A stretch of 64,000 bases of DNA, taken from Raja brachyura. Lineage: Eukaryota. The translations under genes and the position numbers were made by a program. The DNA is taken from positions 6,696,001-6,760,000 of the forward strand of contig OY740814.1 of NCBI GenBank assembly GCA_963514005.1, in the 5' to 3' direction. This document shows, one piece after another, positions 12,145 to 60,643 of this stretch. Position 1 is the stretch's first letter, and every line of letters begins with the position of its first letter. Below the pieces are notes generated by a model. The model had not been told where the DNA came from and ran no database searches. It was given only the letters and a program-made list of their open reading frames with translations.

Positions 12145-12450
12145 ATAGGTTGGGGGGAGGGATAGCTAGGAGATGGTGTCTGAGGCAGGAGGCAGAGAAG
12201 GGAAGCACTCAGACCCAACATGTACGGGGGGGAAGAAGAAAAAAATAATAAACAGAGAATAAGAGGCGGTGGGTGTCTTAAAGGTGTGAGCAGAGAGAAA
12301 GAGGGGTATGAAATAACAATAGAAGCAAGTGGTAGCAAGGTGAAAATTAATAGTGGCTGGCAGACAAATACAGGAAAAAAATCAAAAGGGGCCACTTGTT
12401 AACATAATTGTATAAAGGGTCAAAGTGTTGTAAAAACAAGCCTGAAGGCT

Positions 12451-15225
12451 TTGTGTCTCAATGCGAGGAGCATTCGTAATAAGGTGGATGAGTTGAAGGT
12501 GCAGAGAGCTATTAATGACTATGCTATAGTTGGGATCACGGAGACATGGCTCCAGGGTGACCAAGGCTGGGAGCTGAACATCCAGGGATATACAATATTC
12601 AGGAGGGATAGATGGAAAGGAAAAGGAGGTGGGGTAGCGTTGCTGGTGAGAGAGGAGATTAATGCAATAGAAAGGAAGGACATTAGCATGCAGGATGTGG
12701 AATCGATATGGGTTGAGCTGCGAAACTCTAAGGGGCAGAAAACGCTAGTGGTAGTTGTGTACAGGCCACCTAACAGTAGTATTGGAGTTGGGGATGGCAT
12801 CAAACAGGAAATTAGAAATGTGTGCAACAAGGGTAACACAGTTATAATGGGTGACTTCAATCTGCATATAGATTGGGTGAATCAAATTGGCAGGGGTGCC
12901 GAGGAAGACGATTTCTTGGAATGTATGCGGGATAGTTTTCTCAACCAACATGTGGAGGAACCAACGAGACAGCAGGCTATTCTAGACTGGGTATTGAGTA
13001 ATGAGGAGGGGTTAGTTAGCAGTCTTGTTGTGTGTGGCCCCTTGGGCAAGAGTGACCATAATATGATTGAGTTCTTCATTAGGATGGAAAGTGACATAAT
13101 TAAGTCAGAAACAAGGGTTCTGAACTTAAACAAAGGTAACTTTGAAGGTATGAGCTGTGAATTGGCCAAGATAGACTGGCAGGTGAGTCTTAAAGGGTTG
13201 ACAGTGGATGTGCAATGGAAGGTATTTAAAGACTGCATGGATGAAGTACAAAAATTGTTCATACCAGTTTGGCAAAAGAATAAATCAGGGAAGGTGGTGC
13301 ATCCATGGATAACGAGGGAAATCAGGGATAGTATAAAAACTAAAGATGAGGCATACAAATTGGCCAAAAAAAGCAGACTACCAGAGGACTGGGAGAAATT
13401 CAGAATCCAGCAGAGGAGGACAAAGGGCTTAATTAGGAAAGGGAAAATAGATTACGAAAGGAAACTGGCAGGGAACATAAAAACTGACTGCAAAAGGTTT
13501 CATAGATATGTGAAGAGAAAGAGACTAGTTAGAACAAATGTTGGTCCCTTGCAGTCAGAAACAGGTGACTTGATCATGGGGAACAAGGACATGGCAGACC
13601 AATTGAATAACTACTTTGGTTCTGTCTTCACTAAGGAAGACATAAATAAGCTGCCGGAAATAGCAGTGGACAGGAGGTCAAATAAGATGGCGGAACTGAG
13701 TGAAATCCAGGTTAGCCGAGAAGTGGTGTTGGGTAAATTGAACGGATTAAAGGCCGATAAATCCCCAGGGCCAGATGGTCTGCATCCCAGAGTGCTCAAG
13801 GAGGTAGCCACGGAAATAGTGAATGCATTAGTGATAATTTTTCAAAGCTCCTTAGATTCTGGAGTAGTTCCTGAGGATTGGAGGGTAGCTAATGTAACCC
13901 CACTTTTTAAAAAAGGAGGGAGAGGGAAAGCGGGGAATTACAGACCAGTTAGTCTAACATCGGTAGTGGGGAAAATGCTAGAGTCAGTTATTAAAGATGG
14001 GATAGCAGCGCATTTGGAAAGTGGTGAAATCATAGGACAAAGTCAGCATGGATTTACAAAAGGTAAATCATGTCTGACAAATCTTATAGAATTTTTCGAG
14101 GATGTAACTAGTAGAGTGGATAAGGGAGAACCAGTGGATGTGTTGTATCTGGACTTTCAGAAGGCTTTCGACAAGGTCCCACATAAGAGATTAGTATATA
14201 AACTTAAAGCACACGGTATTGGTGGTTCAATATTGATGTGGATAGAGAACTGGCTAGCAGACAGGAAGCAAAGGGTAGGAGTAAACGGGGTCCTTTTCAG
14301 AATGGCAGGCAGTGAGTAATGGGGTACCGCAAGGCTCAGTGCTGGGACCCCAGCTATTTACAATATACATTAATGATTTGGACGAGGGAATTGAATGCAA
14401 CATCTCCAAATTTGCAGATGACACCAAGCTGGGGGGTATAGTTACGTGTGAGGTGGATGCTAGGAGGCTGCAGGGTGATTTGGATAGGCTGAGTGAATGG
14501 GCAGATGCATGGCAGATGCAGTATTATGTGTATAAATGAGAGGTTATCCACTTTGGTGGCAAAAACATGAGGGTAGACTATTATCTGAATGGTGGCAGAT
14601 TAGGAAAAGGGGAGATGCAACGAGACCTGGGTGTCATGGTACACCAGTCATTGAAAGTAGGCATGCAGGCAGTGAAGAAAGCAAATGGTATATTAACATT
14701 CATAGCGAAAGGATTTGAATATAGAAGCAGGGAGGTTCTACTGCAGTTGTACAGGGTTTTGGTGAGACCACACCTGGAGTATTGCGTACAGTTTTGGTCT
14801 CCAAATCTGAGGAAAGAGGGGGTTCAGAGAAGGTTCACCAGACTGATTCCTGGGATGTCGGGACTTTCATATGAAGAAAGACTGGATAGACTCGGCTTGT
14901 ACTCACTGGAATTTAGAAGATTGAGGGGGGATTTATAGAAATTTACAAAATTCTTAAGGGGTTGGACAAGCTAGATGCAGGAAGATTGTTCCCGATGTTG
15001 GGGGAGTCCAGAACAAGGGGTCACAGTCCAAGGATAAGGGGGAGTTCCTTTAGGACCGAGATGAGGAAAAAATTCTTTACACAGAGAGTGGTGAGTCTCT
15101 GGAATTCTCTGCCACAGAAGGTAGTTGAGGCCAGTTCATTGGCTATATTCAAGAGGGAGTTGGATGTGGCTCTTGTGGCTAAAGGGATCAGGGGGTATGG
15201 AGAGAAGGCAGGTATGGGATACTGA
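12451..15225 (+). pseudogene. CR1 ORF2: APE endonuclease and reverse transcriptase (622-aa open 5' part, then frameshifts)
   Basis: LNARS, ITETW, VYRPP, MGDFN, SDH (APE); [31 protein letters not shown] (RT). Continues in ORFs 14312, 14567 and 14962. Confidence 0.95.
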
Positions 15226-17894: not shown

Positions 17895-18120
17895 TAGTAC
17901 TGTAGATTTAGCTCGTTTACAAAGCCAAACTGTAGATGCTGGAAATAAAAGATGTCAAATTAATTAATAAGCCATTTGGATCTTCAAGCCTGCTTTAGCA
18001 TTTAGTAAGATCATGGCTGATCTGATCATAATCTCAGCTTCACATTTCAGTCCATGTGCAGCTCAGAACAAACATGTGGAAAAGTGCCCTTCGGCCCAAT
18101 GATCAGTCATGCACTAGTTC

Positions 18121-18480
18121 TAAGGGGTTGGACAGGCTAGATGCAGGAAGATTGTTCCCGATGTTGGAGAGGTCCAGGACAAGGGGTCACAGCTTAAGGA
18201 TAAGGGGGAAATCCTTTCAGACCGAGATGAGAAGGACTTTTTTCACACAGAGAGTGGTGGGTCTCTGGAACTCTCTGCCACAGAGGGTAGTTGAGGCCAG
18301 TTCATTGGCTATATTTAAGCGGGAGTTAGATGTGGCCCTTGTGACTAAGGGGATCAGAGGGTATGGAGAGAAGGCAGGTACGGGATACTGAGTTGGATGA
18401 TCAACTATGATCATATTGAATGGCGGTGCAGGCTCGAAGGGCCGAATGGCCTACTCCTGCACCTAATTTCTATGTTTCTA
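18121..18480 (+). mobile_element. Young truncated CR1 inserted in a minus-strand HE1-like SINE (18070-18705)
   Basis: GLDRLDAGRLFPM...KAGTGY ORF and TTTCTATG tail; SINE sequence on both sides. Confidence 0.9.
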
Positions 18481-21465: not shown

Positions 21466-21620
21466 GACAAGCTGCTTGGGTATATATTTATATAATGGTA
21501 TATGGACACACTGATCTGTTCTGTATTCATGCCTACTATGTTCTGTTGTGCTGAAGCAAAGCAAGAATTTCATTGTCCTATCAGGGACACATGACAATAA
21601 ACTCTCTTGATTCTTGAATC
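21466..21620 (+). mobile_element. Rex1/Babar 3' tail
   Basis: GGGACACATGACAATAAACTCTCTTGATTCTTGA; inverse of 22222-22350. Confidence 0.7.
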
Positions 21621-22221
21621 CCAAATCTGCAGCAACTTAAAACATGGGAGTCGGGCATGAAAATAAAGGTTCTTTGATGCCAGAGGAAGTAGTTGTGGCA
21701 GGTACAATAACAACATTTAGAAGATATTTTCAGGTACATGGATAGGAAAGACTGAGAGGGATATGGGCCAGGCCTGGGCAAATTGGGCCAGCTTAGATGG
21801 GTCGAAGGGTTTGTTTCTGTGCTGGGTGACTCAATGATTAATCATGACAGAAAACCTAAACGGAACAGCTATAAATAAATAAAGCAAGATTTTAATAGTG
21901 CGTGCCTTTTCACCTGTTGCTGGATGTCAACATCTTCAACAGCTTTGACTGTTTTTCATTTTGATTACTGACTAACTTGTTGCATGGAAGACCTAACTTT
22001 TATGTCCACAAGTGTTTTAATGTTTACAGGGAGCTCTTGGCACACAAGTGTGGAAAAGAATATCTGCTATAAAGCTAATTAGAGTGTATTATTTTAAATT
22101 CATTTCTGGCAACCATTGTTATGAATTGTAATGTCAGCTACAACCACAGGGTGGCAGCCAAGGGTTGAAAACCAAATCATTTCTTGAACAGACAAGAATC
22201 AAGAGTCTTGCACTGAAACTA

Positions 22222-25060
22222 CACAAGATTCAAGAGAGTTTATTGTCATGTGTCCCTGATAGGACAATGAAATTCTTGCTTTGCTTCAGCACACCAGAAC
22301 ATAGTAGGCATAAATAAATACAGAACAGATCAGTGTGTCCATATACCATTGAGAGAATATATATATAAGGAGGTTTCACGGCAGTCGGGTCACGACCCAT
22401 GACCCGTACTGTTGCTACACTACGCCAAGTGGAGTACACGCGATGAACTGCAGGTAAGCACTTACCATTGTTCCAGCGTAGCCGGCCCGTTAAAACCCGC
22501 CGAAATTGTCAATTTTTGCGCTGTAAATAATTATGGACATCTGGATAAGCGTGAGAGACATTTAGCCTACATCAGAATTCCAAAAGTGAGGAGAAATGAC
22601 GGTAGATAGAAGCGAGAGCTGAAGGGACAACAACAGCCAGAGTGCTTGGCGAACATTGGCCGTTTGCTCACTGCATTTCATCAACTAAGGCATTATTTGT
22701 GTTTTTTCTTGATTCCTTTGGCATCTAAAAACTTTCCGAAGTGATAAATCTGGCTGTAATATTTTTAAATCGCCCACGGTTCTCAAGTGGGTTTTTACAT
22801 ACAAAAAGAAAACGCCTCTGAAGCAAAATTTACAGCCAGATTTATCACTTCTGAGACTTTGTAGATACCAAAGGAATCAAGCAAAACCACAAATAATGCC
22901 TTACTGTTGATGAAATGCAGTGAGCGAACGCAATCATTCCCAATATTTTCAATTCCGATATCTGCACGGCCAATGTTCGCCAAGCACTTTAGCTGTTGTT
23001 GTTCCTTCAGCTCTCGCTTCCCTTTACCTTCATTTCGCTTCACTTTTGGACTTCTGAGGTTGAGTACATGTCTCTCACGCTTACCCCGACTTCCACAAAT
23101 TTTTACAGTGTAAAAATCAAACATTTTGGTGGTTTTTAAACAGGTAGGAAAGTGTGCGTTTCTTGCATTAATCACGTATACCGGAAGTTACGGATGTCCC
23201 CCAGATGGATTGAGCGGCTCCGGATATGGGGAAGAAGCTGTTCCTGAACCTGGATGTTGCAGATTTCTGGCTCCTGTACCTTCTACCTGAAGGCAGTGGG
23301 GAGATGAGTGTGTGGCCAGGATGGTGTGGGTCCTTGATGATGCTGCCAGCCTTTTTGAGGCAGCGACTGCGATAGATCCCCTCGATGGAAGGAAGGTCAG
23401 AGCCGATGACGGACTGGGCAGTGTTTACAACTTTTTGCAGTTTTTTCCACTCCAGGGCGCTCAAGTTGCCGAACCAAGCCACGATGCAACCGGTCAGCAT
23501 GCTCTCTACTGTGCACCTGTAGAAGTTCGAGAGAGTCCTCCTTGACAGACCGACTCTCCGTAATCTTCTCAGGAAGTAGAGGCGCTGATGTGCTTTCTTT
23601 ATAATTGCATCAGTGTTCTGGGACCAGGAGAGATCTTCAGAGATGTGCACGCCCAGGAATTTGAAGCTCTTGACCCTTTCCACCATCGACCCGTTGATGT
23701 AAACGGGACTGTGGGTCCCCATCCTACCCCTTCCAAAGTCCACAATCAGTTCCTTGGGTTTGCTGTGTTGAGAGCCAGGTTGTTGTGCTGGCACCATTTG
23801 GTCAATACTCACTTCTATACTCTGACTCGTCCACATCAGTGATACGTCCCACAACAGTGGTGTCATCGGCGAACTTGATGATGGAGTTCGCACTATGTCC
23901 GGCTATGCAGTCATGAGTATAGAGTGAGTACAGCAAGGGGCTGAGCACACAGCCTTGAGGTGCTCCCGTGCTGATTGTTATCGAGGCTGACACATTTCCA
24001 CCATTACAAACAGACTGGTCTGTGAATGAGGAAGTCGAGGATCCAATTGCAGAGGGATGCGCAGAGACCCAGTTCTGCAAGTTTGGTAACCAGCTTGGAG
24101 GGGATGATTGCATTAAATGCCGAGTTGTAATCAATGAATAACAGCCTGACATATGTATTTGTTGTCCAAGTGGTCCACAGCGGAGTGGAGGGCCAGCGAG
24201 ATCGCATCCACCGTTGATCTGTTGTGACGGTAAGCGAACTGCAGTGGGTCCAGGTTTTTGTCGATGTAGGAGTTGATTTGCGCCATGATCAACCTCTAAG
24301 CACTTCATCACCACAGGCGTTAGTGCCACAGGTCGATAGTCATTGAGGCACGTCACCTTGCTCTTCTTGGGCACCGGTATTATTGATGCCCTTTTGAAGC
24401 AGGAGGGAACCTCAGAAGAGAGAGTTTGAAAATGTCCGTAAAAACTCCAGCCAGTTGGTCCGCACAGGTTTTTAGAACACAACCGGGTATACCATCAGGT
24501 CCAGGCGCTTTTCGAGGGTTCACCCCTCTGAAGGATTTTCTGACGTCGACCTCTGTGACTGAGACTGAAATACCATCACGGCGAATGGGGGCTCGGGAAG
24601 GCACATCAGTGTTCTCCCTGTCAAAGCGTGCGTAAAACGCATTGAGTTCATCAGGGAGTGATGCTTCGCTGACATTTGAGCTGCCTCCTGATTTTGCCTT
24701 GTAGGAGGTGATTGCATTCAAGCCCCGCCACAGCTGCCAAACATCTGTCTCGACCTCCAGCTTGGAGCAGAAGTCCCTTTTGGCTTTTTTGATGGTCTTA
24801 CCAAGGTCATATCTGGACTTCTTGTATCTTCAGACATGAATGCCCGGTGTCTGGTCTTCAGAAGAGTGCGGATCTCATTGTTCCTCCAAGGCTTCGGATT
24901 GGGAAACACTCGGAAGGTTTTTGTTGGGATGCAGTCCTCCACACATTTCTTTATGAAGTCTTTATGTAACGACAGTGGCGTATTCATTCAGGTCCGTTGC
25001 CGAGTCCCTGAACATTGCCCAATCTACAGACTCCAAACAGTCCTGGGGTTGTTCCTCAGC
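22222..25060 (-). mobile_element. 5'-truncated Rex1/Babar LINE (frameshifted RT), 3' UTR interrupted by an inverted-repeat element
   Basis: [77 protein letters not shown] and LPSGRRYRS motifs; tail at 22222-22360. Confidence 0.92.
22368..23228. mobile_element. Unclassified non-autonomous DNA element with a long subterminal inverted repeat
   Basis: Arms at about 22490-22760 and 22830-23140 (e.g. GTGATAAATCTGGCTGTAA / TTACAGCCAGATTTATCAC) with unique outer ends. Sits in a TA run. Confidence 0.7.
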
Positions 25061-25181
25061 CCCCCTCCCCCCCCCCCTCCCCCGACAGCACAACAGGTCA
25101 GTAACACATAGTGCTCAAAATATACCAATAAACAAACACAAAATAAATTCTATTTAAAAAAAAAAATAAAAACCCAAGATT

Positions 25182-31959: not shown

Positions 31960-32874
31960 TTATAAAACCCGCTGGAATGTTGTTTCATTGGACCAACCCG
32001 CCGTTGCAAGGATGTGGTCCATAGGAACTTCCATCATTCTCGCTGCTGATGTAGCTGCAGCCCTGGTAGAATTAAATTTTAAAATATCAGTGTCCACCCC
32101 CGCTGCACCTAACACCACCCTGAGCCATCTTGAGATGGTCTGCATGGTTACTCTGTGATGAGGGTGTTTAAAACTTATCAATAGGGACATTTCTGTACCC
32201 CTGAGACTTTTGGTGACCTCCAGGTAATGTAGAAGGTGGGTCACTATGCAAAGGCGTCTATCTACGGGATAAACCAGGAACTCCAATTTGAGGCCAGATG
32301 ACCCAGGCCTGTTCTGTTTGAGTAACTCATGAATGTAAAAGGTTACCTTATTTTGGGATGTTACCATGGCGTCCAGTTTTAGTTTGTGCAGAGACTGGAC
32401 CCGCTGCGCCGTTACAAGTGCTATAAGCATCACTATATTATACGTGAGCTTGGTTAGTGAGCGGGACATGGCTGGTTCCCAATCTCTGAGCAGGGTAAGG
32501 ACAATGCCAATATCCCAGGTCTTGGAATATCGAGGCCTGGGGGGATTAGAGTTAAAGATACCCCTCATACGTTTTGACACCACAGGGCGAGATCCTACTC
32601 CATGGTGTTCTAACCCCTGTCCCAGGTATGAGGATAAGGCACTTCTGGCGCAGTTGATGGCACTATAACTCAAGCCTTCATCGAAATGTAGACTTGCCAG
32701 GAACTCCAGCACATCCTTGATAGTGGCTGTGCTGTAAGTAGTGCCTGTCCTGGTACAAAATACCTCCCATTTTTTGACTTAGGTGAGGTACTGTTGCCTG
32801 GTGGACTCTCTGCATGATGCCGTGATGATATTTATGGTTCGGTCCGACAGCCCGAATTCCAGGAGAGGTCTTTT
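31960..32874 (-). pseudogene. DIRS tyrosine recombinase
   Basis: YSAINCARSALS, LVTAQRV, NSTR (HxxR altered), AGWSNETTF. An extra G shifts out the expected RFYNKP tyrosine; one upstream in-frame stop. Confidence 0.9.
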
Positions 32875-34891
32875 CAAATCCTGCAAACCAATAGGTTCAT
32901 ACGGTCATGGCATGGATGACTCTCCCCTGTTACAGGATGCACCAGCAAACTGGGGCGTTTGGAGATCGGAATACATGGTCCTGAGACCATGTCGAGAACC
33001 ACAGGGAACCATGGCTGAGTAGGCCAATCGGGTACTATCAAAATACCCGATGCAGAGTCTTGTTGAATTTTCCGCAATACCCGACTGATGAGGCAGAAGG
33101 AGGGAAATGCATGGAAGAATAAATCCCCCCAGTGTAGCGAGAAAGCGTCCATCGCTACTGCCCCAGGGTCTGGTTCCCATGCAACATATGTTGGTATCTG
33201 GTGATTAAGTCTGGATGCAAAAGGGTCGATATTTGGTGTTCCATACCGAGCTACAATGTCAGTAAATACCTGGTGGTCCAACATCCATTCGGTGCTGTCA
33301 TTGAATATGTGTGACCTGGTGTCCGCCACTATATTGAGCTTACCCGGAAGGTAAGTAGCTGATATCCAAATGTTTCTTTCTATGCACCAGTGCCAGATTG
33401 AATTGGCCAATTCATCACAAGATATCGACTTAATTCCACCCATATGATTAATGTATGCCACCACGGTGGTGTTGTCAATTTGTAGGCGAACATGCAGATG
33501 GTACATGTCTGAACAGTAAGCCTGAAGTCCATGAAACGCTCCCAACATCTCTAGATGATTAATACCCAGTGTCTGAAGTAAGGTTAACTCGTGTGTATTC
33601 CATCTACCACCACAACTGGAGGTGGTATCAGTTGCTCCCCAGCCGGGAGCACTGGCGTCAGTTTGTAACACAACCGAAGGGTTTGCGACTGTGATGGGAT
33701 TAGAGCAATGTTGAATATTGCTAATCCACCATCGCAATTCCAATTTCTCTTTGGCCGGCAACTGTATTGGCCTGCCAAAATGGCCAGCATGATGTTTGAG
33801 TGCTGCAATTTTGGCCCTTTGTAGATTTTGGTAATGTAAGGGTCCATATTGTGTGGCTGGAAAGGCAGCCACAAGCTTCCCAATTACCCTGGCTACTTGC
33901 CGAATAGATGGTTTACTGACACAAACAAGGCTGTTACATGCCTATCAAGTCTGTTGCTTTGTTCCTTTGCAAGGGGACAGACATATGAACAGTCAATCAT
34001 GAACCCCAAATAATCCATAGTCATAGAAGACATTAACTTGGATTTGTCTGGATGGATGATAAATCCCAATTTTTGAAATAGGAGCTTGGTGGCTGAGACA
34101 GCCAATTCCAAGGTTTTCCCCACAATTAGGATGTCATCGAGATATGCCATGACAATATGTTTTTGTTTCCGAAGAAACTCCAATGCTGGCTTCAATATTT
34201 TGGTAAACAGTCTGGGGGCTGATGTTACTCCATTAGGCAGTGCTTTATATTGCCAGAGCTGCCCCATCCAGATAAATTTCAAATGTCTGCGGTGATCTTT
34301 GTCTATTGGTACTGAATAGTATGCATCTTTTTGGTCGATGCAAGCCATGAAGTACCCCTTGGAAACTAGTTGTTTCGCAGTAACAAATGTTTCCATTTTG
34401 AAGTGGGTGTATTACACAAAAGTATTCAGTTGTGTCAAATCAATAATGATGCGGCATCCGCCATCTTTTTTGTTTTTGGTGAAGATGTTTGATACAAACT
34501 CGAGAGATTCATGTTTGGTTTTCTCTATTACTCCCTTAGTATATAGTCTAAACAGTTCTGCATGACCTTCCACTTTCTCTTTTTGTGAAAGCACAAACTT
34601 TCGGCTAGGTGCATGTTGAACCGGAAGGAGGAGTTTGTCAACAAATTCAATTTTGTATCCTTGAATACTGTGCAGTATGAAAAAATCAGAAGTTATAGAA
34701 CTCCATGCATCCCTAAACAAGTGTAACCTGCCCCCAACTTGTGAAGAAGTTACACATGCTATGTTCCGAGGGCAACCAGACCCTCCTACCTCCATGGTTA
34801 CCGGTGGTTCTGTGTTGGTTTTCTCCGTCCTTGGTTCCTGGGAGGTGGAGGCGTTGTGGTGTGGGGCTGGCGCATCTTCCAGGAAGGCCAC
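32874..34891 (-). pseudogene. DIRS pol: reverse transcriptase, RNase H and adenine-methyltransferase-like domain (frameshifted)
   Basis: KKDGGCRIIIDL, IDQKDAYYSVPI, SAPRLFTK, AYLDD; LQTDAS, HLEM, IDNTT, NIVAD; IDPFASRLN, DAF, AFPSF, IVPDWPTQPWF. Confidence 0.93.
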
Positions 34892-36029
34892 TCTGGGACA
34901 TGGCCTAAAAAAGACCTTTGTGTGGGATGTACGGCCTTCGAGCTTTCACCAGCTGTTCTTTCGCTGTGATAACGGGCCCTGCTGGTGTATGCATAGGGGT
35001 GCTGCCACCTAGTTAATGAGGACCTGGTAGTGGCCAGCACCTTAATCATACCGACTGCTTTTGCGTCTTTGTCGAGGTCTTTTACCTGTTTGTGCAGGTT
35101 GTCCCCGAACAACAGAGTAGGCGGCTGTGTGCTGCTGGTTCTACACAACCCCGCGAACTTTGGGTTCAGTGTAGGTCGGATGGCACTCTTCCTGAAGCAG
35201 TTGATCTCACATTGAACTTGCAGAAGAGTGCCAGAGCATCCCGTTGGTCCTCCGACATATCTTTTCCATCCACTGACCTGGCAAAAGCTGAAATACCAGA
35301 GGCCAGTAGTTTGCGGATTTTTTGCATTTTGACTTCCTGGCTCCTGATTCCAGGTCTGATATTTCCCCAGATGGGGTTATTTACCGCAGGCACATTGAGT
35401 GACATGCAGTTCTCTGGAGCTAGGTATCTGGCCGTCGTGTTGTTCATAACTTGTTCTTGCAGCTGATGAGTTGTTAGATAATTTATACTAGCTGCCAGCT
35501 GTGGCTGCAACGGCAGTCCCTTCTGTGAGGGCATCGCAAACTTGGATACCATCCCAAGTAGCTCCTTTTCTTGCACCCCTAGCACGTTTGATTCTTCTGC
35601 CAACTCCCTCTCTTCAGAGTCAGCCCAGACCTGACTCCTTATGCTCCGCTGCGAAGAGAGTGAGACATTTGGCAGCCCTGTAAAGGGTACTGCCGTGGGT
35701 CTGCTAGGAGACCCACGGTGACCAGACTCCTGCTGGAGTAGGTCACGTTGGAGCAACTGGTCCACCATCCGCTCCATGCGGGATAATTGACCACGTCGCT
35801 ACCCGCGAACGGCGAGTCTTCGAACCCGGACCCAGCCAAGTCAACGGGATTGCCCGACTTCCGGGTGGCTTTCCCGCCAGTCCGGGCTGTAGCGGTGTCA
35901 AGTCGGGGGCTGCCGTTTGTACAACCGGAGCTCTGGAGAAGTCGGCCGCTGTTGACTGCCCGTGTTCCCGTGGTCCTCTGCAGTCAGTTTTAAAGTGGCC
36001 CGTTTGGACTTAGTTCGGGATTTGTCCAT
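34798..36029 (-). pseudogene. DIRS ORF1 (gag-like), frameshifted
   Basis: CCACCATGG start at 36029 (MDKSRTKSKR); PENCMSLNVPAVNNPIW and LLFGDNL motifs in ORFs 35166-35777 and 34798-35148. Confidence 0.75.
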
Positions 36030-49317: not shown

Positions 49318-49460
49318 NNNNNNNNNNNNNNNNNNNNNNNNNNNNNNNNNNNNNNNNNNNNNNNNNNNNNNNNNNNNNNNNNNNNNNNNNNNNNNNNNNN
49401 NNNNNNNNNNNNNNNNNNNNNNNNNNNNNNNNNNNNNNNNNNNNNNNNNNNNNNNNNNNN
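49318..49460. other. Assembly gap (143 N)
   Basis: Run of N. Confidence 1.
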
Positions 49461-49710
49461 GTAACTCAGCGGGTGAGGCAGCATCTGTGGAGAGAAGGAA
49501 TGGGCGAAGTTTCAGGTCGAGACCTTTCTTCAGACTGATGTCAGGGGAGGGGGCGAGACAAAGATAGAATGTAGTCGGAGACGGTAAGACTAGTGGGAGA
49601 ACTGGGAAGAGGAAGGGGATGGAGAGAGAAAGCAAGGGCTATCTGAAGTTCAGATAGCTTTTCAGATAAAAATAGGCCTTGGTTATCCCTCCCGTGATAT
49701 CAGGCTGAAG

Positions 49711-50677
49711 CAAAGATCCTATAGCGAGCAAGATAGTCCACTCCTGCTAAATCCAATGGGCTGACGTGTAGTGTGCAACGCAGTGGAACGTCGGCCTTTT
49801 CTTCGGCCATTTCAGTAACCCGACTTTGTATATCCCTCTCGCAGTGTAATCAGCATTGCGGGGGAACAGTTTGTGTGTGTGATATAAGGTTAAATTCATA
49901 ATTCTGTTAATTCATAATTCTGTTAAATTTTGTTAAAGATTAATATGTTAACAAATTATGATTCTGTTTATTGTATTTTTCAATATGAACATTCCAGTTG
50001 CTCTACTCTTGGAATGTTCCTTAATGATTTTTTGTGTCTATGGAATTGTTTGTCAACAATAAAATGGGTCTGGTCTTCCCAATAGCCAGAGAGTGGAATG
50101 ATGTAATGGTGGGGTTATCTAAATGAAGTAATTAACAAAATAAAAATTGTTTTGAGCTAGATTAAAAAATGATGTATACCTTAAGGATGGTTTTATTCAG
50201 CGAGCATACAACTGATTAGATTGTGTAGGAAAGAACACACATACACACATATATGAATGTGATATAGATGTATATAATCATATAACACACATATATATAT
50301 TTCTCCAGATTTTTATATATAATGATAAACTTTATTTCAGACACAAGGCCCAGACAAGGGACAACATTACATAAAAATACATTGCAAACCTCCCCGCAAC
50401 TTTACCTTGGCATCCCAGCCGTGCTGATCCGGGCCAGACTTTCCACACGCTGTGGATGGAACATACGCATCTTTCTGCTTTTTATTGTGAGGCAGAGGCA
50501 GAAAGAAAATGAGGAGAAGATTTTTACCAAAGATCTTTGATTTTTACGAGGATGTTTCCGTAAACGGTTTCCTTCTCCGCACTAGTTCTCCGCACTGAAG
50601 ATTGCCCATGACTCTGCCCATGGCGGTACTACGTATTTTTCGTCGAGTGGACTATCTTGCTCGCTACAGGATCTTTG
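49711..50677. mobile_element. Non-autonomous TIR transposon with 8-bp TSD, probably P-element superfamily
   Basis: 33-bp TIRs CAAAGATCCT(A/G)TAGCGAGCAAGATAGTCCACTC (one mismatch); TSD G(G/T)CTGAAG; splits a PLE repeat; no transposase ORF. Confidence 0.8.
50520..50547. mobile_element. 12-bp remnant CAAAGATCTTTG between perfect 8-bp TSDs
   Basis: ATTTTTAC-CAAAGATCTTTG-ATTTTTAC. Confidence 0.75.
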
Positions 50678-50842
50678 GTCTGAAGAAGGGTCTCGACCTG
50701 AAACGTCAGCCATTCCTTCTCTTCAGAGATGCTGCCTCATCCACTGAGTTACTCTAGCATTTTGTGTCTACCTTTGATTTAAACCAGCATCTGCAGTTCT
50801 TTCTTACACTGTTTGTGTGTGTGTGTGTGTACATGTATATAT

Positions 50843-59080: not shown

Positions 59081-60643
59081 CAGTGCATTCAGACCCCCTT
59101 CAGTTTTTTCACATTTTGTTATGTTGCAGCTATTTTCTAAAATAGATTAAATTCATTATTTTTATCATCAATCTACACACAATACCCCAGAATGAAGAAC
59201 CAAAAACAGGTGTTTAGAAATTTTTGCAAAGTAATTGAAAATATATAACTGAAATATCACATTTACATAAGTATTCAAATCCTTTACTCAGTATATTGTT
59301 GAGGCACCTTTGGCAGTGATTACAGCCTCAAGTCTTCATGGGTATGACGCTACAAGCTTGGCACACCTGTATTTGAGTAATTTCTCCCATTCTTCTCTGC
59401 AGATCCTCTCAAGCTCTGTCAGATTGGATGGGGAACGTCGATGCACAGCTATTTTCAGGTCCCTCCAGAGATGTTCTATCGGGCTCTGGCTGGGCCACTC
59501 AAGGACATTCACAGACTTGTCCCAAAGCCACTCCTGTTATCTCTTGGCTGTGTGCTTAGGGTCGTTGTCCTGTTGGAAGGTGAACCTCCGCCCCAGTCTG
59601 AGGTCCGGAACACTCTGGAGCAGGTTTTCATCAAGGATCTCTCTGTACTTTTCTCCGTTCATCTTTCCCTCGATCCTGACTAGGCTCCCAGTTCCTACCA
59701 CGGAAAAACATCCCCACAGCATGATGCTGCCACCACCATGAATCACCGTAGGTATGGTATTGGCCATGTGACGAGCGGCGTTTGGTTTCCTACAGACGTG
59801 ATGCTTGGCATTCAGGCCAAAGAGTTGAATCTTGGTTTCATCAGACCAGAGAATCTCCTTGGTGCCTTTTGGCAAACTCCAAGCGGGCTGTCATGTGCCT
59901 TTTACTGAGGAGTGACTTCTATCTGGCCACTACCATAAAGGCCTGATTGGTGGAGTGCTGCTGAGATATAGTTGCCCTTCTGGAAGGTTCTCCCATCTCC
60001 ACAGAGGAACTCTAGAGCTCTGTCAGAGTGACCATCGGGTTCTTGGTCGCTCAGTTTGATTGCTCAGTTTGGCCAGGAGGCCAACTCTATGAAGAGTCCT
60101 GGTGGATCTAAAGTTCTTCCATTTAAGAATGACAGAGGCCACTGTGCTCTTTCAGACCTGCTGCAGAAATTGTTTTATACCCTTCCCCAGATCTGTGTCT
60201 CGACACAATCCTCTCTCGTAGGTCTACAGACAATTCCTTTGTCTTCATGGCTTGGTTTTTGCTCTGACATGCACTGTTAACTGTGGGACCTTGTATAGAC
60301 AGGTGTGTGCCTTTCCAAATCATGTCCAATCAATTTAATTCACCATTGGTGGACTCCAATCAAGTTGTAGAAACATCTCAAGGATAATCAATGGAAACCG
60401 GATGAACCTAAGCTCAATTTTGAGTGTCAAAGGAAAGGATCTGAATATTTATGTAAATGTGATATTTCAGTTATTTCTTTTCAATTACTTTGCAAAAAAT
60501 TCTAAACACCTGTTTTCACTTCTTCATTCTGGGGTATTGTATGTAGATTGATGAAAAAAAAGAGTTTAATCCATTTAAAAATAAGGCTGTAATGTAACGA
60601 TGTGGTAAAAGTGAAGGGATCTGAATACTTTCGGAATGCACTG
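59081..60643 (-). mobile_element. Tc1-family IR/DR DNA transposon (defective)
   Basis: TA|CAGTGCATTC...GAATGCACTG|TA, about 200-bp TIRs with inner and outer TATTCA direct repeats. Confidence 0.95.
59288..60248 (-). pseudogene. Tc1 DDE transposase (frameshifts and deletions)
   Basis: [56 protein letters not shown] motifs. Confidence 0.93.

Follow-up and report, generated by a model that had tools for sequence, protein, structure and literature searches.

The P transposase of Drosophila cleaves each terminal inverted repeat (TIR) 17 bases in from its tip, leaving 3′ tails of 17 nt on the donor (PMC7776569, in part). Subsequent end joining gives a scar that consists of a target site duplication (TSD), a TIR stub, a microhomology, a second TIR stub and the second TSD copy (Table 1 of PMC2895639). 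Both the scar type and the repair mechanism are already known from experiments in Drosophila. A zebrafish study, in the part available, describes larger flanking deletions after excision (PMC10983969). Termini of the YARNG type are regarded as a hAT feature by PMC3014272 and as a P feature by PMC2820524 (both in part). Table 4 of PMC3276498 gives the target motifs GTCCGGAC for P and GTNCGNAC and NTNNNNAN for hobo. In the literature searched, which covers few subscription journals, we found no paper on natural P-type scars of vertebrates or on the transposon family described below; the family may nevertheless be catalogued.

The site considered here (50520-50547) is part of a 64-kb window, i.e., the whole stretch of DNA that was analysed. 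It lies inside a 967-bp non-autonomous TIR DNA transposon at 49711-50677, the long form of an abundant family, which is called the host in the following. The host TIRs comprise 33 bp each (left, 49711-49743, plus strand; right, 50645-50677, minus strand) and are identical in 32 of 33 positions; the left TIR contains two self-complementary words, GATC at bases 5-8 and CTATAG at bases 9-14. The single mismatch is located at 50667 in the right TIR, where C>T is found in 80-97% of the depth in sequencing runs of related organisms. Since the mismatch differs from the majority state, the TIR of the family is perfect. Related organisms also contain, as a minority, a TIR variant in which 49725 is followed by an extra G. 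The flanks GGCTGAAG (49703-49710) and GTCTGAAG (50678-50685, both plus strand) agree in 7 of 8 positions and represent the host TSD. The right copy is the start of a retroposon 3′ tail, the insertion target of the host, and we take this tail to be the end of a LINE or SINE of the shark/ray type. Contigs of the related organisms whose match ends before 50678 show a loose-end consensus that terminates in ACTATCA/ACAATCA, corresponding to the empty form of the retroposon tail. Because these host-free tail contigs end like the left flank without the repeat, the 8 bp were truly duplicated and the TSD is real. An assembly gap of 143 N (49318-49460) is located 250 bp left of the host and adjoins a further copy of this retroposon tail in inverted orientation.

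The host was found only once in the 64-kb window. Out of 32 frames, 23 stop-free frames of the host were searched against Pfam and gave no match at the cut-off; below threshold there was one match to DUF6128 with an E value of 0.13. Neither a THAP remnant nor a P transposase was detected in these 23 frames or in protein searches from two frames, and the best Atlas score in the protein search for a sister or master element was 0.75, a mere lead. Rfam gave no match in the host, and the TIR patterns of the host had 0 matches in metagenome contigs, prokaryote genomes and viral contigs. The 8-bp TSD and the 33-bp TIR starting with CA agree with the P superfamily but are not exclusive to it, and the CAAAG ends together with an 8-bp TSD agree with hAT (YARNG termini) as well. 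The host works like a P-MITE, as a non-coding, putative member of this group.

The window contains several other repetitive elements. Minus-strand frames at 31960-35983 look like a tyrosine recombinase, a reverse transcriptase and an RNase H, and presumably belong to a DIRS-type retrotransposon. A stop-free frame of 638 aa at 12403-14319, with further fragments at 7422-8221, 14540-14938 and 18032-18391, resembles, as far as we can judge, the endonuclease and reverse transcriptase of CR1/L2 LINEs. Broken minus-strand frames at 23168-25111 we assume to be the reverse transcriptase of another non-LTR retrotransposon. An element with inverted arms of 130 nt (92%) at 59159-60560 presumably holds fragments of a Tc1-like transposase. 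Two more inverted-repeat elements, at 21524-22316 (93-nt arms, 97% alike) and 22490-23139 (174-nt arms, 82% alike), are possible MITEs.

The 28-bp site within the host is composed of the left repeat ATTTTTAC (50520-50527, plus strand), a putative old TSD with T at position 2 and A at position 7, the 12-bp palindrome CAAAGATCTTTG (50528-50539), a putative excision scar, and the right copy of ATTTTTAC (50540-50547, plus strand). The palindrome is perfect and equals TIR bases 1-8 overlapping their own reverse complement at GATC. Both 8-bp copies are intact, and the insert comprises the tips of both TIRs joined at a microhomology. This is what an earlier note on the sequence had described, namely a 12-mer with perfect 8-bp repeats inside the element, its core being the left end fused to the right end at the self-complementary GATC, and both points were confirmed exactly. 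The direct repeat around the core really measures 9 bp (GATTTTTAC), and its register is ambiguous by one since the base preceding the left repeat is a G like the last base of the core. Folding is unremarkable (z values of −1.1 and −1.3).

The palindrome CAAAGATCTTTG is the only perfect palindrome of at least 12 bases with an 8-bp flanking direct repeat in the 64 kb. For the exact arrangement ATTTTTAC-CAAAGATCTTTG-ATTTTTAC within the element a chance of about 2e-9 was calculated from its own base composition, a post-hoc figure. CAAAGATC alone is not enriched in the 64-kb window (6 observed versus 3.4 expected). Close direct repeats are frequent here, 1.7 per kb across the window, and the host contains 10 direct-repeat pairs of at least 7 bases at a spacing of up to 40, of which two lie no more than 70 bp from the site, so that a direct repeat by itself is weak evidence. 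At 50573-50622 and 49893-49926 we noticed TTCTCCGCACT twice (spacing 13), TGCCCATG twice (spacing 12) and an 18-base repeat (spacing 16), which are possible binding repeats or old duplications. The spacer provides the stronger argument. Its match to the scar predicted from the TIR is 12/12 in the window copy and 10/12 in the majority of depth, and for a core between exact 8-bp repeats at this spacing the probability of agreeing by chance is about 4e-6 per element at 10/12 and about 2e-7 at 11/12, or 4e-5 when ten scar types are allowed. The 28-bp site therefore looks like a real TIR-derived relic, a reading that is favoured because the spacer matches the TIR tips and not because a repeat exists.

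Copies of the host were then considered in sequencing runs of related organisms. Of the 23 runs listed, 14, which stem from 7 organisms, contain 37-43% of the words of the host and none reaches half; because the best share is only 0.43, the species of the window itself is probably absent. RNA data sets do not appear in this listing, which carries no information about expression. Four of the 23 runs (X1, X2, X3 and X15, from organisms A, B, C and B, respectively) were aligned at 80% likeness, with X16-X23 left out due to their small share. In organisms A, B and C the family is highly abundant, for the most part in a short version (about 356 bp) with about 17 other letters in place of the segment 49876-50505 (49877-50504 when delimited more narrowly). 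High depth begins at about 50505-50515, to the left of the first copy of ATTTTTAC, and in a joint contig the shorter side, which runs from 50515 and has 39 letters, includes all 28 bp. Two long pieces, record 16 of X15 and record 24 of X2, cross the site without deleted letters. Thus, both repeats and the 12-base core are present at the same place in other copies (four runs, organisms A, B and C).

These results do not support the proposal of the earlier note that an element inserted into this particular sister copy, which an empty site would prove. A form that is shorter by 20 bp was found neither among the 12 of 36 indel rows nor among the 15 of 62 joints listed, in assembled contigs, which drop rare forms. 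The observation that was named as speaking against the proposal, that no copy lacks the 20 bp, is what organisms A, B and C show as far as the listed rows go. Since the other copies share the 28-bp structure, the putative scar was inherited from the founder of the family and is not private to the window copy. Its presence in many copies implies that the event must predate the amplification of the family, and for this reason an empty site is expected to be absent.

In most of the depth from the related organisms, the core departs from the perfect palindrome at two letters. Position 50534 is A in 96, 94, 99 and 96% of the depth in the four runs, and position 50539 is T in 92, 90, 96 and 80%; in both cases most of this depth stems from the short form, and depth does not equal copy number. 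The perfect palindrome is thus a minority state in the runs examined. We considered whether these letters could come from an empty allele that had been misaligned to the window, and rejected this because such an allele would give quite different base calls. The window copy itself differs from the majority form by at least 3.6% (35 differences), which is a lower bound because 177 further rows exist beyond those listed. For this count 35 of the 40 listed rows were used; 49910, 50252, 50294 and 50295 (about half or minority in X1) and 50709 (outside the element) were dropped.

In order to assign the core states to the long and the short form, we made use of the reported distance of a variant from the contig end. 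The rule that this value counts the aligned columns to the nearer end in the best contig reproduced seven of seven test rows. A at 50534 is reported with a value of 30 in X15 and of 31 in X2. Records 16 and 24 would yield 38 and at least 34, respectively; due to this mismatch the two long-form records do not carry A at 50534. They probably keep GATC, with T at 50534 as the simplest assumption, as judged from the alignment metadata of organism B only. Record 15 is ambiguous at this position. Letters other than A at 50534 have a depth that is, in each of the four runs, 0.4-2.5 times that of the long form. At 50539, record 16 would give exactly the reported value of 33, and may thus carry T, in which case its core matches in 11 of 12 positions. 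The view that the palindrome is a private accident of the window copy is weakened by the long-form contigs without A at 50534.

A second micro-element is found at 9021-9067. It consists of a 31-bp core, CAAAG...CTTTG (9029-9059), between CTCAGTAC and CTCAGCAC, which form a 7/8 repeat, and is a candidate scar of a related family. Among 111 CAAAG and 116 CTTTG sites of the window, only three pairs up to 5 kb apart have flanks that agree in at least 7 of 8 positions, namely the one at 9029, the host and the core at 50528. Third-order Markov simulations yielded no such micro-element in 500 trials, and with a looser CA...TG test at least two micro-elements were obtained in 8 of 500. When all 1024 five-letter heads were compared, CAAAG alone had two matches; only the match at 9029 is independent, because this head was chosen after seeing the finding. 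The right arm of the 9029 micro-element is identical in 17 of 20 positions to the host TIR variant with the extra G, and the core can be read as 12 + 2 + 17 bases, or as 12 bases plus 19-20 bases of a related TIR. No empty homologue of it was found in the 64-kb window. An old inverted-repeat element (8919-9238; arms of about 83-91 nt, 78-81% alike) encloses the micro-element. T at position 2 and A at position 7 occur in all three flanking repeats (9029, host and 50528 core; chance of about 0.1 each). Compared to the P motif GTCCGGAC, the three target sites score 5/8, 3/8 and 5/8, and T2/A7, present in all of them, is shared by the P and hobo motifs.

The explanation that we rather favour is that the 28 bp are a fossil scar, formed when long 3′ tails of the P type were joined at GATC in the founder of the family. 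An element with the same TIR tips would have entered the right subterminal region of the founder and duplicated ATTTTTAC. Upon excision by a P-type transposase, the donor would retain the first stretch of each TIR in single-stranded form, as a 3′ tail. The identical tails could then pair at GATC, and trimming of the flaps and filling of the gaps would result in CAAA-GATC-TTTG between intact TSDs. The scarred founder would still have been mobile, so that the 20 additional bases were passed on as the family multiplied, an inheritance that is seen in organisms A, B and C. Later, the short form would have gained two core substitutions, while the long-form contigs appear to keep GATC and the window copy has the perfect core; we infer the order of the long and short subfamilies from this. 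Within the first 12 bases of the TIR, GATC is the only symmetric microhomology that reaches 4 bases, and the scar predicted from it measures 12 bp, the length seen here. Pairing at CTATAG, with tails of at least 14 nt, predicts a scar of 22 bp and is slightly stronger (−4.7 versus −4.1 kcal/mol for GATC). The remaining predicted scars, which range from 20 to 48 bp and comprise the 22-bp CTATAG product as well, are absent from the 64-kb window. The idea of P-like annealing of TIR overhangs at GATC goes back to the earlier note; its TIR-derived, self-complementary join stands and has the form of published P scars (Table 1 of PMC2895639), while the annealing itself is a step that we infer.

We consider it rather unlikely that, after the same old self-insertion, the inserted copy disappeared through abortive gap repair or through a deletion at the microhomology of the two GATC words, which also form a direct repeat, and not through annealing of transposase-made tails. 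The product would have an identical sequence, and this route makes a long staggered cut unnecessary and is compatible with a family of the hAT type, to which the 8-bp TSD, the YARNG ends and T2/A7 are suited as well as to P (PMC3014272, PMC2820524 and PMC3276498, each in part). The family does make internal deletions, as seen from the short form and other joints, but those listed retain well over 17 end bases, whereas both micro-elements end within about 20 bases of the tips. One arm at 9029 can be read as 19-20 TIR bases, exceeding the 17-nt tail of Drosophila; the alternative division into 12 + 2 + 17 bases is, however, a class present in Table 1 of PMC2895639, and the presence of two such relics within 64 kb points to a recurrent route. 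With regard to hAT, canonical footprints are derived from a hairpin of the flank and hold no TIR sequence, while at 50528 the flanks are intact and the insert is TIR-derived.

A lower probability is assigned to an origin without any insertion, by which an old local duplication of 8-9 bp, or else a subterminal binding repeat similar to the tip of the TIR, turned into a perfect palindrome in some copies, be it through point mutation or through a short template switch; we regard this as quite unlikely. It agrees with the presence of the 20 bp in all copies aligned (listed rows), the imperfect core of most of them and the other close repeats near the site. Template switching is described to perfect near-perfect inverted repeats (PMC7954356, in part), and copying the right six bases from the reverse complement of the left six would account for both differences in one event. 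On the other hand, a 10/12 to 11/12 match to the scar would have to arise by chance, in register, between exact T2/A7 repeats (2e-7 to 4e-6). Furthermore, two independent, specified transversions have a chance near 8e-5, compared to 2-7% for at least two changes in 12 bases at the observed divergence of 1.8-3.6%, and the relic at 9029 and the long contigs without A are left unexplained. A recent insertion and excision private to the window copy, as literally proposed in the earlier note, is very improbable. It would fit the perfection of both core and repeats in a copy that differs from the majority by at least 3.6%, and the runs cover related organisms and not the species of the window, but the same 28-bp structure is present at the same place in organisms A, B and C.

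Returning to the joining of P-type tails, a wider scenario can be drawn up, which we put forward as tentative and somewhat doubtful. This vertebrate genome may hold many natural scars of uncatalogued, CAAAG-ended, P-like families, two being present in 64 kb and one of these being independent of the host. The arm lengths would reveal how deep the staggered cut goes, namely at least 8 and perhaps 19-20 bases, which would exceed the 17 of Drosophila P, and one such scar would have been incorporated into a successful master and would date its subfamilies. If the joining of P-type tails holds true, scars of this kind could sort orphan non-coding TIR elements by chemistry, TIR-derived scars indicating long staggered cuts of the P type and flank-derived ones hAT; 8-bp TSDs and YARNG ends cannot separate P from hAT. 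The cut depth of vertebrate P-like transposases would become readable from genomes without an active enzyme, and an inherited scar could serve as a marker for ordering long and short subfamilies. A function of the single inherited scar is not evident.

Among known systems, the host resembles P-MITEs in its TIR of about 30 bp that starts with CA (27-31 bp in Anopheles, PMC1562414; 27 bp in Izanagi of medaka, PMC2820524; both in part). The 8-bp TSD, the non-coding nature and the short derivatives are further features shared with non-autonomous P elements and P-MITEs (PMC2820524, PMC1562414 and PMC10983969, each in part). Unlike in these comparisons, a THAP remnant or a master element was not found for the host. 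Pdre of zebrafish has TIRs of 13 bp, subterminal repeats and a sequence different from the host (PMC10983969, in part). With non-autonomous hAT elements the host shares the 8-bp TSD, the YARNG termini and targets of the NTNNNNAN type (PMC3014272, in part). Footprints of Ac/Ds consist of deletions and of palindromic insertions that stem from the flank via hairpin opening (PMC5873905, in part), while the insert at 50528 stems from the TIR. The closest likeness is to the end-joining scars of Drosophila P, which have intact 8-bp TSDs, stubs of both TIR tips and a junction at a short microhomology (PMC2895639 and PMC7776569, both in part), and which are sometimes asymmetric or carry a small insertion (Table 1 of PMC2895639). 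In contrast to these, the putative scar at 50528 is natural and old, lies in a vertebrate within an element of its own family and was inherited by many copies.
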